Below, piece after piece: positions 47,024-51,930 of a stretch of 64,000 nucleotides of DNA; within the stretch, counting starts at the first letter, position 1; every line of letters starts with the position of its first letter. A model generated the notes under the pieces. That model was not told the DNA's origin. It did not search any database and saw only the letters and a list, made by a program, of their open reading frames with translations. Location of the stretch: the IMG/VR virus record IMGVR_UViG_3300037067_003476, positions 64,001 to 128,000 of that record; one strand, given 5' to 3'. The DNA is from a virus. Lineage: Duplodnaviria; Caudoviricetes. The position numbers and the translations under genes were made by a program.

Positions 47024-49549
47024 CTATTGATTATACACCTCTCCGCGTTTTACGGCAGCGACATTATTGCTTCTGGCCCACTCTGCATTTCTGAATCCTG
47101 CAATTCCTGGTCCGCGATACATACCCTCTGACGGGTCCACGTTAACAGCCCTGATGTTACCTGGGACATCATCATAATCTATTATTGGAGGAGGAGTTAT
47201 ATCGTTGTCGTAGACATATCTGTGAGCAATCAACAAACTGGTATACCTATCCTTTCGCATCTTATGGGTTTTTTTCTTACCCTCAGATATGCTCATTTCT
47301 GTAACAGAAGGTGCTTCGAATTTTTCCTTTCCAGTCGGAGTCGATGTCATTTTGATGGCACATAATTCGTTTTTAAGTTCTTCGATATTATGAACGATGT
47401 CTTCGTAAGTATCGGTTGTTATTCCGGCAAGATTTTCAACAGCCATTGCCGCCTGCATTTTAACGGTATTTATTCCTGGGAACAATAGTTTTCTGGTTTC
47501 AAAGCTCTTGTGCATAAACAAATTAGACTGACTATTCCATTCGGTCGATTGCGCGATAAGATGTAATATATGTGGCCCATCCCTCTCTTCGTCCATTGCC
47601 TTTGGTGCATCAAAATCAATTACCTCATAAATTGGCATATCCCCTTTAGATGGATCTAATAGCTTTTTATTCCTTAGCATCTCGGCTATAGCATATCCAC
47701 CACCCTGACTATCCATCTCTATGCGAATAGGCGAAAACGCCTTAACGACATCTCGTATACGAGAGCAACAGTAATCGTAATAGTCTTTGTTTGTAACCAA
47801 CCCTCGCTTCTTACGTTTCTCAAACTCTGGTTTGTTAACTGCCCAGCAATATACTATTCTCCAGTGATTAGGCCAAACCTCTATTATGGTTATTGCCAAA
47901 TTATCCCGTTCTGCTGCTGGGTCAATTCCGATCACGTACTTGACACCCTTCTGTGCTCGGGTTATTGGCGTAAACACAATATCTCCGTCTGGCGTCGTGA
48001 TGGGTTTGCCTGGATATGTTGTACACGCCTCGATCAAACTTCTTTTATATATACCATCCGAGTCTGCAACAAAGCAATTGTGATGAACAATGCCCTGGGC
48101 TAGATACGAATGGTCTTCTTCTACCTCTAAATTATAGACCCAGCCAGAATAATCGTATACCTCTATTTTGATTACATAAACAATATTTTGAACTGGTGAT
48201 GAATCACCATCGTTACATACGAAAGACGATAGCTTATCACCAACCATCAAATGTTTCGCCGAAACAAATTTGCGACCATTCCATATCGGATGATAGGCTG
48301 TGACCTCGATAGGATTGTCAACATCAGTACTGATTTTGTATATAGACCCAGTGTAATATCTATACTTTCTTCTAATTACCTTTCGTTGTAGTCCTGTGTG
48401 AGATATTACTAAATCGCCACAATTAACATCAACTATCCTCTTCGTTCCATTACTAGTGTAGACTTGTGTATTTTCGACTGCGCATGCACCGTATTCCATT
48501 AGATATATATTGGTGGGTAACGTTGCTTTGGCGTGTGCTAATTGTCTTTGATCAAGCAATCCCTCTTGGACACAATTGTGGGGAAGACGAATAACAGCAT
48601 AGTCCTTCCAGTTAAAGTGCTCTGGTATGTTATCTTCGCCGCCAAAAATGTCGGCGATAATGTCTCTGTTACCACCACTTTGTATGATACTTTTCCACAT
48701 CTCATATCGCTTGGCGAAATGATTGAACGCATAGTACGCCGTACCACTATATATAATTTGGTTGGTACCTCGCGTGTCGCCAACAAGCCTATCTCGAACA
48801 TGCTTGGGAACACCAGCCTTTGCTAGCTTTTTATCAAGAGCTATCTTCTGTGCTTCTTCTACTGGACTTTTTGATGTTGCGGCGAATCCGCGAACTACGA
48901 TATCAAATACATCTGCTGGTATCGAAGCAAACTCGTCCGCTATAATACAATGGGCTCGAAGACCACGAATCTTTGTTCCGTCTCCCATCGGTGCAGCAAT
49001 AATAACGGACTCACCGATCCTAAAGTAACAAAGATCTACACTCTGTTTTGGTCCAGCTTTACGGCCACCACCAACAATACTGCGTAATACTGGAGCAGAA
49101 CTCCAGATATCTTCTATGTACTGAAAAACCAACTTTGCCTGTCTTAGCCCAGCACCAACTATTACTATTTTTGATCCTGGCTCAAGTATCGCCTTTAATA
49201 TTGCATAGACGGCCAATATGAAAGACTTTCCGGAACCACGAGATGCAATGAGCATTGGAAACGAATGGTCCCACAATGTTTTTAGAATAGCAAGCTGCAT
49301 AGGAAACAACGATGTGTTCAGAATAGACTTAACTGTCCATCCGATATATTCTGGATCAAGTATCGCACGAATAACAAACTCGTCTGCCTTTTGCTTATCA
49401 TGAACAATATCTTGAAATGGATGGTTGGTAATAACAGGAACATCGTCTCTGTTTGGGAATAAATATGCGTACCGGCCTTCGTCACCGTAGAGCAGCGCAT
49501 TTATTCTATCTATTTGTTTTTTATTCTTTACTTTTGCTGAGGAACCCAT
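47024..49549 (-). CDS. terL: Terminase large subunit (intein-containing)
   Basis: Walker A ASRGSGKS, RGLRA..IIADEF Walker B, RNase H-like IGIDPA nuclease. Confidence 0.92.
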   Translation of the reverse strand: MGSSAKVKNKKQIDRINALLYGDEGRYAYLFPNRDDVPVITNHPFQDIVHDKQKADEFVIRAILDPEYIGWTVKSILNTSLFPMQLAILKTLWDHSFPMLIASRGSGKSFILAVYAILKAILEPGSKIVIVGAGLRQAKLVFQYIEDIWSSAPVLRSIVGGGRKAGPKQSVDLCYFRIGESVIIAAPMGDGTKIRGLRAHCIIADEFASIPADVFDIVVRGFAATSKSPVEEAQKIALDKKLAKAGVPKHVRDRLVGDTRGTNQIIYSGTAYYAFNHFAKRYEMWKSIIQSGGNRDIIADIFGGEDNIPEHFNWKDYAVIRLPHNCVQEGLLDQRQLAHAKATLPTNIYLMEYGACAVENTQVYTSNGTKRIVDVNCGDLVISHTGLQRKVIRRKYRYYTGSIYKISTDVDNPIEVTAYHPIWNGRKFVSAKHLMVGDKLSSFVCNDGDSSPVQNIVYVIKIEVYDYSGWVYNLEVEEDHSYLAQGIVHHNCFVADSDGIYKRSLIEACTTYPGKPITTPDGDIVFTPITRAQKGVKYVIGIDPAAERDNLAITIIEVWPNHWRIVYCWAVNKPEFEKRKKRGLVTNKDYYDYCCSRIRDVVKAFSPIRIEMDSQGGGYAIAEMLRNKKLLDPSKGDMPIYEVIDFDAPKAMDEERDGPHILHLIAQSTEWNSQSNLFMHKSFETRKLLFPGINTVKMQAAMAVENLAGITTDTYEDIVHNIEELKNELCAIKMTSTPTGKEKFEAPSVTEMSISEGKKKTHKMRKDRYTSLLIAHRYVYDNDITPPPIIDYDDVPGNIRAVNVDPSEGMYRGPGIAGFRNAEWARSNNVAAVKRGEVYNQ
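47031..47038 (-). promoter_or_regulatory. GTGTATAA motif (putative late promoter)
   Basis: In the last codons of terL, upstream of the portal gene. Confidence 0.55.
48077..48484 (-). mobile_element. Mini-intein (136 aa, no endonuclease) in TerL
   Basis: EYGA|CAVENTQV (block A), VTAYHP (block B TxxH), VYNLEVEEDHSY (block F), IVHHN|C (block G, +1 Cys). Confidence 0.92.
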
Positions 49550-50040
49550 AATGATCTTTCTTGTTTTACAACCATATCAAAAATAATTTTTGAGACCTGC
49601 CTACCGCACTGTCCAACAAACATAATCGGAACAGAATACTCTGAACCAAGTTTCATTAACCAACCGATAACCGCCTTACCTGGAACATGCGTTTTAATTT
49701 GTGATGGCGATAATTCAAAAGCCTCTCGGGTTAAATCGGTTTCTATTAAAACATAACGATACTTAATTTCCGCCATCCTAATAAATTCATTCAATATTCT
49801 ATCTTGATCATTCAGGTAATTATTCCATAACTCTGAAAAACCTGCTTTCCGCTCGATACATAGTAAGTGTTCATAATTTTGAATAGAGTAGTCACCCGTT
49901 TTCAGGGTGTCTGTGGTCGTTCCCAGACATAACGGCGGGCGTTTCGTTGGGTGACTGCGCGAAAATTCCCAATAACTTCCACACTCTTTCTCTCGTGTAT
50001 CGCGAATCACAGTATATGATGGCATTATTAGTCTTGGCAT
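49528..50040 (-). CDS. ERCC4/XPF-family nuclease
   Basis: IRDTRE, LKTGDYSI, IERK motifs. Confidence 0.85.
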   Translation of the reverse strand: MPRLIMPSYTVIRDTREKECGSYWEFSRSHPTKRPPLCLGTTTDTLKTGDYSIQNYEHLLCIERKAGFSELWNNYLNDQDRILNEFIRMAEIKYRYVLIETDLTREAFELSPSQIKTHVPGKAVIGWLMKLGSEYSVPIMFVGQCGRQVSKIIFDMVVKQERSLWVPQQK

Positions 50041-50046
50041 GACTTG

Positions 50047-51053
50047 TTACCCATTAATTTCTATTCCAACTTGACGACAATCATGTATCACCATTTCTCG
50101 TATCAATTCGTGAAACGTAGTCTTTGGTTCCCACCCAATGATTCTCTTGGCTTTAGAAGCGTCTCCACATAATAGTTCTACATCTGCGGGACGAGAACAT
50201 ACTGCGTCATACCCGACATGATCTTCCCAGTTTAGGCCAACTACCCCAAATGCTTCTTCGAGCAATTGTTTAATAGACCATGTTTTCCCTGAAGCTATTA
50301 CAAAGTCGTCTGGCTTTTCTTGTTGAAGGATAAGCCACATTGCTTCTACATAATCACGAGCATGGCCCCAGTCTCTGCGCGCTGTTAGACTCCCTAGTTT
50401 AAGTTTGTCTATTTGTTTATTATGCTGTCTAGCTTGAAGCAGTCTAGCAATATACATAGTAATTTTGCGGGTAACAAAATCTTCGCCACGCCTAGGACTA
50501 GAATGATTAAAAAGGATGCCTGTGCAACCAAAGACCCCATATGCTTCTCTATATAATCTACAGGAGTAATATCCTGCCGCCTTAGCTACTGCGTAAGGCG
50601 ACCTTGGACGAATTTCGGTTCCTTCATTTTGTGGGGATTCTCGTACATCTCCGAAAAGTTCCGATGTTCCAGCGAAATACATCTTGGTAGTATTACTAGT
50701 TTGTCTAATAGCTTCAAGAATATTTAGAGTTCCCATAGCATCGGTTTGAAATGTAGCGTATGGCTCAACAAACGATACACCAACATTGCTTTGTGCCGCT
50801 AGGTGATATATCTCATCCGGCTTTATTCCAGATATTATTCTAAACATACATGACGCATCGGTTATATCCCCCTCAACTAAATGCAGTTTGGGATTAGCTA
50901 ATAAATGGTTTATTCTTTCTTTTGTATTTGTAGACGATCTTCGTATTAAACCATAAACATTGTATCCCTTTTCTAATAGTAGCTCAGACAAAAACGATCC
51001 GTCCTGACCCGTAACTAAACGCCCGTGATTAGGGCTGTTTTAGTCCTGTTCAC
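50047..51053 (-). CDS. gmd: GDP-mannose 4,6-dehydratase, interrupted by a 5-nt insertion at codon 12 (candidate ribosomal bypass, or pseudogene/assembly error)
   Basis: AAGGAGG SD, then GTG 51053: MNRTKTALITGV-stop; the other frame continues VTGQDGSFLSELLLEKGY; downstream motifs TSELFG, YAVAK, FVTRKI, RDWGHA are intact. Confidence 0.85.
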
Positions 51054-51930
51054 GGGCATCCTCCTTTCGACACTGATTCCACTTGTATTCATATTGTTCT
51101 CCTATTGAAACACTTTGCCTAATCCACATAAGAAACGCCTTAGCAGACTTACTACGAAGTCTTATCCTATGTGTATTTTCGCTATATATACAAGAAAATC
51201 CAAAACTCTCTAATTTAGAAATTAAGAACTCACAATCTTTTTTAGAAAAACGTTCCGTACATAATATTAAACCATATTTTAATGGCTTCCCATCCCCTAT
51301 CGCCCACCAATAATATGATAATGGCGTCAATCTAATATCATATGGTATACACCTAGTTTTATCTTTATTATACCATCTAGTATGATGATCTCTAAAAAAT
51401 TTATATGAATGAGATTTAATAAAATATTCACTATTACCACTATGCTTATCTACTCCTGTCCAAATTGGAGAAAAGTCAATCTTACTTAATGCTTTTTGTA
51501 CTTGAAGAATTGTCTCTTTAAAACATGATCCATAGCAAAATCTACCGGATAAAGACGACTGAGAAATATCTATGTGACCATCACCAAGCATCATTCCGTC
51601 AAGAATCTCTAAATCAGTATCGGATAGCTGAACATCTTTTAATCTATCAATATGGTGTTGCGAATTCCCGTCTATTATCATGTGTTTACTATGTTCTGTG
51701 TGTGTTCGTCCATAAAATGGATTATTTACACCAGAATTTGCAAAAGACATTTTTTGTTTCCACTCGTCGGTATGTTTTCTTCCTTTATTGCGCTTACCAA
51801 TATTTCGCTTGGCACAAGTTCCAGAACAAAATTTACGCAGTCGATCTCTTTTGTTGTTGGGATTTACAGAAAATACACGATTGCATTCTTGACAAATCCT
51901 TTCTTCTAATATAGAACAATTATTTATCAT
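51040..51930 (-). mobile_element. Free-standing LAGLIDADG homing endonuclease with Zn-finger and NUMOD3 motifs
   Basis: CQEC...FCSGTC, KGRKHTDEWKQKMS, NPFYGRTHT, ILDGMMLGDG and WWAIGDG; visibly more AT-rich than its flanks. Confidence 0.85.

Follow-up and report, generated by a model that had tools for sequence, protein, structure and literature searches.

Utilised translational bypassing is represented by very few systems, and gene 60 of phage T4 is its one well-studied phage case. The T4 mobA/gene 60 pair combines an HNH endonuclease with a 50-nt translational bypass (bioRxiv 10.1101/2022.08.31.505936; Atkins et al. 2016, PMC5009743). This bypass is thought to exist because the insert shields the gene from the neighbouring homing endonuclease. 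MobA nicking is blocked by the insert and not by nearby polymorphisms, and the gap of one gene-60 clade measures only 20 nt (bioRxiv 10.1101/2022.08.31.505936). In gene 60, the nascent peptide exerts its signal at a distance of 25-30 residues from the P site (Atkins et al. 2016, PMC5009743).

Much shorter hops are described in Escherichia coli. Weiss et al. (1987) name +5 and +6 tRNA hopping, and O'Connor et al. (1989) studied hopping by a tRNA whose anticodon is expanded. According to a 2016 review, no in-frame stop-hop was known from nature, nor had the natural use of a hop this short been established (PMC5009743). Furthermore, T4-like phages harbor free-standing homing endonucleases of the seg and mob types and display intronless homing (PMC2988022).

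Here, we analyse a phage locus in which the logic of T4 gene 60 may recur with another nuclease family, another gene and a gap of 5 nt. The window, that is the whole stretch of 64,000 nucleotides under analysis, covers positions 64001-128000 of a 143,155-bp IMG/VR virus record.

The interrupted gmd gene and its neighbourhood

On the minus strand, a gene for a 305-aa protein is followed by a glycosyltransferase-like gene (53003-51927), an endonuclease gene (51930-51040), gmd, an ERCC4-like gene and the large terminase gene. The features of the window that concern us are:

51927-51930, minus strand: ATGA shared by the stop of the glycosyltransferase-like gene and the start of the endonuclease gene; it is the gmd start in the endonuclease-free relative
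51040-51930, minus strand: free-standing homing endonuclease gene, 296 aa, with NUMOD3 and double-motif LAGLIDADG_2 (Pfam)
51060-51066, minus strand: Shine-Dalgarno sequence AAGGAGG, then a 6-nt spacer and GTG 51053-51051
51017-51061, minus strand: predicted 12-bp hairpin in which the end of the Shine-Dalgarno sequence and the GTG (51061-51050) pair with the last ORF1 codons (51028-51017)
51015-51053, minus strand: gmd ORF1, GTG and 11 sense codons (MNRTKTALITGV), then TAG 51017-51015
51018-51020, minus strand: candidate take-off codon GTT (Val), read from the sequence
51013-51017, minus strand: five extra bases TAGTT, equivalently GTTTA at 51016-51020, present in independent contigs
50047-51015, minus strand: gmd ORF2, open for 322 codons between the second GTT and the stop at 50047; apart from the interruption, an intact GDP-mannose 4,6-dehydratase
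50470-51053, minus strand: gmd stretch divergent from the endonuclease-free relative (0.52-0.76 nucleotide identity), a possible co-conversion tract

The gmd start described in the original prediction, a GTG at 51053 with AAGGAGG at 6 nt and a TAG shortly downstream, is present in all its elements on the minus strand. The five extra bases contain both this stop and the candidate landing codon GTT 51015-51013. As claimed, this second GTT lies 5 nt after the first and opens the gmd frame; removal of the 5 nt gives ITGVTGQDGS with no residue change, which is the canonical Rossmann loop and its commonest form among 120 homologues. The remaining gmd motifs had been described as intact, and this holds: ORF2 scores 392 bits against Pfam GDP_Man_Dehyd and departs from 4 of 90 highly conserved columns, as much as 11 of the 120 homologues do. 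Against TIGR01472, ORF2 alone reaches 385 bits and stays under the cut-off of 415, the full loop being formed only if the 5 nt are skipped. As to the features of a decayed pseudogene, ORF2 carries no second lesion across its 322 codons and has lost few conserved residues. Such a clean frame is also compatible with a very recent inactivation of gmd.

The LAGLIDADG gene said to overlap the gmd start is likewise found. Its ORF runs from ATG 51930 to the stop 51042-51040 and overlaps the gmd GTG by 14 nt. It is intact, and both of its Pfam domains exceed their cut-offs, with 64 bits for LAGLIDADG_2 (cut-off 25) and 47 bits for NUMOD3. Residues D117 and D213, one in each LAGLIDADG motif, are invariant in 16 homologues. 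Because these aspartates are kept in both motifs, the enzyme is probably active.

The source of this allele is a single metagenome-assembled record. The Logan assembly, produced by another assembler, contains a 118-kb contig with the same 296-aa and 314-aa genes at the same 48-nt spacing; the truncated 314-aa gmd product and the 296-aa endonuclease each have a second entry in the protein database from this contig. A run index places the stretch in a groundwater run, possibly the source, and in landfill runs from other studies, with no RNA run among those listed. An 820-bp contig from one landfill study (50461-51280) and a 168-bp contig from another (50928-51095) both match the window across the site without a mismatch or a gap. 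The inserted allele is therefore common to the source and two other studies between 2018 and 2022, and its lineage has lasted at least four years at several sites. The matching independent contigs and the second assembler exclude an assembly artefact, so that the predicted interruption passes this check; we regard an assembly or sequencing artefact of any kind as scarcely credible. Contig variants that lack the 5 nt were not encountered in four runs at 80% likeness, a search limited by the loss of rare variants from contigs. All known inserted copies are identical and thus uninformative on selection. Diverged relatives carrying the 5-nt insertion were not found. Megablast and blastn searches against GenBank phages gave no close relative, a degenerate pattern of the inserted site had no match in viral contigs, and the truncated protein (P0001) was likewise without an exact match on record.

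The nearest gmd protein (P0002; 75% identity, 334 aa) is intact. Its gene is located on a syntenic contig of 143,428 bp (L037) and on three shorter contigs. In L037, the glycosyltransferase-like gene joins gmd through an ATGA overlap, with no endonuclease and no extra 5 nt, in support of the original interpretation. Up to the endonuclease junction, nucleotide identity to L037 is 0.83-0.90; within gmd, the first 540 nt reach only 0.52-0.76, and values of 0.78-0.86 return near the gmd end, the recovery being located about 600 nt into the gene. On sequence grounds, this asymmetric divergence is possibly the outcome of homing, as expected from co-conversion with a divergent donor; locally faster evolution of the gmd 5′ region would be the alternative. 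No frame breaks were detected in other genes syntenic with L037.

Two neighbouring genes deserve mention. Between gmd and terL, an ERCC4-domain nuclease gene (49528-50040, minus strand) is conserved in L037. The terL gene itself (47024-49549, minus strand) contains a 136-residue mini-intein (48077-48484, residues 356-491; Pfam PT-HINT and Intein_splicing), and L037 terL has a larger intein with LAGLIDADG_3 at an apparently corresponding place (1102 aa vs 841 aa).

The endonuclease family and the Rossmann-loop motif

A full HMMER scan returned, at E < 1e-30, 20 cluster representatives that share the domain architecture of the window endonuclease, and gene contexts were drawn from the encoding contigs, viral contigs and metagenome contigs. 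Close homologues (at least ~30% identity) are essentially all encoded directly 5′ of gmd, in ~47 distinct alleles, and the 3′ end of the endonuclease gene mostly overlaps the gmd start. More distant LAGLIDADG matches are not adjacent to gmd. The family (loci L041-L138) comprises free-standing LAGLIDADG_2 proteins with or without NUMOD3, in phages (contigs of 100-400 kb included) and in archaea. Judged by these contexts, it is a gmd-specific family. No paper on LAGLIDADG_2/NUMOD3 genes upstream of gmd was found in the literature searched.

The original prediction treated endonuclease and insertion as one cassette, and this part is not supported. Besides the window, about 46 distinct endonuclease-bearing loci have an intact gmd start, and in all but two loci of the family both this start and the Rossmann loop are uninterrupted; the insertion is thus not part of the cassette. 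The alignment of gmd 5′ ends that had been proposed to look for co-occurrence shows an insertion specific to one lineage, next to endonuclease-bearing relatives with an intact gmd, an outcome that the original prediction itself named as refuting. One further allele beside an endonuclease homologue (L110:1326-1588) is interrupted by an in-frame stop (..HGMI*RTS..); its contig is short and of low coverage, and the stop may represent an error or a damaged allele.

Within the TGQDGS motif, the alleles next to the endonuclease show an enrichment that is limited to changes of the Q and D codons. The counts, taken without phylogenetic correction for the Fisher tests, are:

gmd alleles with the endonuclease: Q/D codons changed in 16 of 47
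viral gmd alleles without the endonuclease: Q/D codons changed in 1 of 30 (Fisher p 0.0015 vs alleles with the endonuclease)
general gmd homologues: Q/D codons changed in 2 of 117 (Fisher p 2e-8 vs alleles with the endonuclease)

To state that all endonuclease alleles have an altered TGQDGS would be too strong, since alleles lacking the endonuclease can also have N or S at the first position. The adjacency to gmd, the enrichment of Q/D changes and a second, independent insert 10 nt away make the DNA encoding the Rossmann loop the probable recognition site of the endonuclease, or a stretch overlapping it. The claim that the 5-nt insertion lies in the target DNA is therefore probable. From these codon changes, we infer that alleles beside the endonuclease may escape through substitution of the Q or D codon.

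The second insert is archaeal. At locus L045, an endonuclease homologue (P0143) runs in frame into the gmd N-terminus and then meets a stop; the remainder of gmd follows in the +2 frame. At this locus, the D codon of TGQDGS is split by 17 extra nucleotides, at a distance of 10 nt from the insertion site of the window. Six archaeal gmd alleles (L045, L142, L143, L144, L148, L165) carry such an insert of 16, 17 or 18 nt between CAAG and ACGG, each with an in-frame stop. Its positions in four of them are:

L045, 1803-1819
L142, 903-919
L143, about 2461-2477
L144, about 1854-1869

L148 is a Nanoarchaeia MAG, and close relatives are named as DPANN-type archaea. The insert-bearing genes are 65-95% identical, and the endonuclease lies upstream in two of the six loci only (L045 and L143). 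Between L045 and L142, whose inserts are identical at 11 of 17 positions, the dN/dS ratio of gmd is 0.049 at a dS of 0.57, so that the gene has been under strong purifying selection while interrupted. An exact pattern of the L045 insert had no match in viral contigs. Among 24 genome matches to the intron pattern, most are chance occurrences in bacteria and three are located in archaeal gmd, one of them on the contig of L143. On this same contig, a second gmd-like fragment (L143:5801-5926) is located ~2.4 kb downstream of the interrupted gmd.

All six archaeal inserts are predicted to adopt the same fold: a 10-bp outer helix, a 3-bp helix, two 3-nt bulges conserved as AAG and AUA on opposite strands, and a small variable hairpin. 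Paired cells make up 94.8% of this fold, and compensatory double changes are seen at four pairs; its covariation score was reached by 0 of 500 shuffles, and slid controls pair at 32% or less. Between the bulges, three standard pairs and one mostly non-standard pair are found, where the bulge-helix-bulge criterion is 4 bp. With the mostly non-standard pair taken as number four, cleavage behind the second nucleotide of both bulges would take out precisely the insert and give back CAA-GAC-GGT. A simple ribosomal hop over the 17-nt insert was rejected because no pair of take-off and landing codons restores the frame consistently (L045, L142), and the varying insert length (16, 17 and 18 nt) disfavours any ribosomal mechanism. 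LAGLIDADG-bearing introns occur in archaeal rRNA. In mRNA, bulge-helix-bulge introns are described in cbf5 of Crenarchaeota (PMC2738675). We thus consider the archaeal insert as a candidate bulge-helix-bulge mini-intron in a protein-coding gene, on the strength of the modelled fold. More generally, the archaeal alleles suggest that corrected inserts at the TGQDGS motif do evolve around this endonuclease family.

Routes to an active enzyme and readings of the phage allele

How could an active enzyme arise from the interrupted phage gene? Between the preceding TAA and the Rossmann loop, the downstream frame offers neither ATG, GTG or TTG nor a near-cognate start, the first start being TTG 50991, past the loop; an internal or non-canonical start is thereby rejected. 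An alternative genetic code fails since TAG read as sense leaves the frame unrestored. A slippery heptamer for -1 or +2 frameshifting is missing, and the +5 GTT is the sole codon that allows re-pairing. Help by a phage tRNA was rejected because the genome encodes only Lys, two Met, Leu-UAA and Glu tRNAs; no tRNA-Val, expanded-anticodon or suppressor tRNA was found in it. A bulge-helix-bulge intron is not an option as 5 nt are too short, and the phage looks bacterial, with a sigma-70-like gene and the use of Shine-Dalgarno sequences. The geometry of a short stop-hop is present: a GTT in the P site, then the stop TAG, and a cognate GTT within a few nucleotides. Because no start, slippery heptamer, suppressor tRNA, sense-TAG rescue or intron is possible, a +5 hop from GUU to GUU with UAG in the A site is the only route found by which the enzyme could be made.

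The predicted RNA structure adds another element. The 12-bp hairpin (z -3.1 and -2.6) includes the take-off GTT and buries the GTG against the ITGV codons; it is absent from 14 other loci. It may make gmd initiation depend on ribosomes that complete the endonuclease ORF, and from the model it is hard to see how it could promote a hop of 5 nt. A stem-loop of the take-off codon with 3′ sequence was not found in the predicted folds. At the TAG, the nascent chain comprises 12 residues. Outside the window, at ~35,980-37,730 of contig G000:C1 (locus L140:1474-3224), two adjacent SDR-type genes encode a generic epimerase/reductase (324 aa) and an RmlD-like reductase (259 aa), which could act after Gmd.

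We consider that the allele is most likely a recent leaky hypomorph or a young pseudogene, and not a dedicated high-efficiency bypass. A gmd-specific LAGLIDADG endonuclease would have arrived by homing where the glycosyltransferase-like gene meets gmd, and would have taken the position of the old gmd ATG; its probable recognition site would be the DNA for the Rossmann loop ITGxTGQDGS. In this lineage, the 5-nt insertion would split the recognition site and break the gmd frame. It would represent a target-site lesion or an immunity allele rather than an integral component of the mobile cassette, and would have arisen when a break was repaired or as a by-product of the junction. The only path to the enzyme would be a hop of peptidyl-tRNA-Val by +5, from GUU over UAG to the next GUU, with ...ALITGVTGQDGSF... 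as junction peptide. Judging from synthetic E. coli constructs, this hop is expected only at a low, unprogrammed level. Three elements of this scheme are inferred: where the endonuclease recognises its target, how the lesion arose, and how often ribosomes hop.

We thus prefer to read the allele as a lesion of the endonuclease site in which hopping is basal at best, and we give this reading slightly less than an even chance. It agrees with the many endonuclease alleles, about 46, that do without the insertion, with the failure to find a diverged relative that shares it, and with the accessory nature of gmd. A 12-residue nascent chain stands against the 25-30 residues at which the gene 60 signal acts; the phage provides no tRNA-Val or suppressor tRNA, and the downstream frame has no in-frame start before the Rossmann loop. 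The endonuclease-linked Q/D changes, the archaeal insert 10 nt away and the drop of identity to L037 all fit events at a target site, and the duplicated GTT may stem from break repair or from the cassette junction. In the latter case, the TAG would be created by about 1/16 of two-base fillers. What this reading explains less well is that the insert is exactly compatible with a hop that restores the wild-type protein, while a random 5-mer would supply a matched codon and a stop in 1/1024 cases (4/1024 with wobble). In addition, ORF1 retains a strong Shine-Dalgarno sequence and a clean start, the 322 downstream codons carry no further lesion with few conserved residues lost, and the lineage persisted for four years or more at several sites. 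The two other sugar-nucleotide SDR genes are intact and could use the gmd product. Lastly, the analogous archaeal insert is clearly compatible with function, which suggests that corrected target-site inserts do evolve around the endonuclease family.

These same points lend themselves to a reading by selection, in which the 5 nt are kept as protection from the endonuclease and the +5 hop (GUU-UAG-UU to GUU) supplies GDP-mannose dehydratase. The insert would then be a selected immunity device read by a natural stop-hop, and one of three solutions at the gmd motif, next to the Q/D-codon substitutions and the archaeal 16-18-nt candidate mini-intron. We hold this joint claim to be rather doubtful, yet still a serious candidate. 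Synthetic E. coli stop-hops with matched codons are documented, hops of +5 and +6 being named in Weiss et al. (1987). The T4 precedent also favours it: there, the insert rather than nearby polymorphisms blocks MobA nicking, and a gap can be as short as the 20 nt of one gene-60 clade. Moreover, an in-frame indel would wreck the GxxGxxG spacing, so that a hop-compatible insert would be the least damaging escape. The downstream ORF is intact, the same allele occurs in three studies, and archaea have a probably corrected insert, compatible with function, at the same motif. However, 46 other endonuclease loci manage without any insertion, and identity among all known copies yields no conservation signal. 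A signal of the gene-60 type is impossible with a 12-residue nascent chain and a take-off stem-loop was not found; the sole strong hairpin buries the start codon and would have its 3′ arm inside the ribosome at take-off. Here too, the duplicated GTT may be a junction by-product. If the reading were true, no shorter utilised translational bypass would be known, and this would be the first one with a LAGLIDADG enzyme as partner.

Correction might also take place elsewhere, through rare reversion of the DNA by slippage between the GTT repeats, hidden uninserted genomes or removal at the RNA level. The short direct repeat GTT(T)A/GTTA makes a precise loss of 5 nt mechanistically possible. We nevertheless find such correction improbable: no uninserted contig variant appeared in the four runs at 80% likeness, contigs being prone to drop rare variants, and 5 nt are too short for a bulge-helix-bulge intron in a phage that looks bacterial. 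Already scarcely credible, an artefact could appeal to the single metagenome-assembled source, against which stand the identical gene calls of another assembler and the gap-free contigs across the site from two other studies. What remains of our expectation is assigned to some explanation that we have not thought of.

Comparison with known systems

Regardless of any hop, the analysis reveals a large gmd-specific family of free-standing LAGLIDADG endonucleases in phages and small archaea, with the Rossmann-loop DNA as likely target. The archaeal alleles add a candidate mini-intron of the tRNA type within a protein-coding gene, of which very few are known. This candidate resembles archaeal bulge-helix-bulge introns in that it is short, has two 3-nt bulges in the modelled fold and would restore the frame by canonical excision; the likeness does not apply to the 5-nt phage insert. 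In contrast to the LAGLIDADG-bearing introns of archaeal rRNA, the endonuclease gene of archaeal gmd loci is located outside the mini-intron.

As in the seg and mob systems of T4-like phages, the endonuclease gene of the window lies between genes and its probable target is in the neighbouring conserved gene; co-converted flanks and immunity through target-site differences would be further common traits. Unlike those systems, the enzyme belongs to the LAGLIDADG_2/NUMOD3 type and the host gene is gmd. The stop-hops of E. coli are engineered, low-efficiency events, which sets them apart from a natural phage allele.

A further counterpart is T4 mobA/gene 60. In both cases, a free-standing endonuclease gene adjoins a conserved, interrupted target gene, and the insert, at or near the target site (a probable one in the window), is absent in endonuclease-free relatives. 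Take-off and landing codons are matched with a UAG after take-off, and the flanking sequence is divergent, as in the 'homR' region of T4. However, the window enzyme is a LAGLIDADG protein and that of T4 an HNH protein, and the gap spans 5 nt compared with 50 (or 20) nt, with both bypass and protection putative in the window. The window insert, missing from 46 endonuclease loci, is not co-inherited with the endonuclease. Its nascent chain has only 12 residues, and a take-off stem-loop was not found among the predicted folds.
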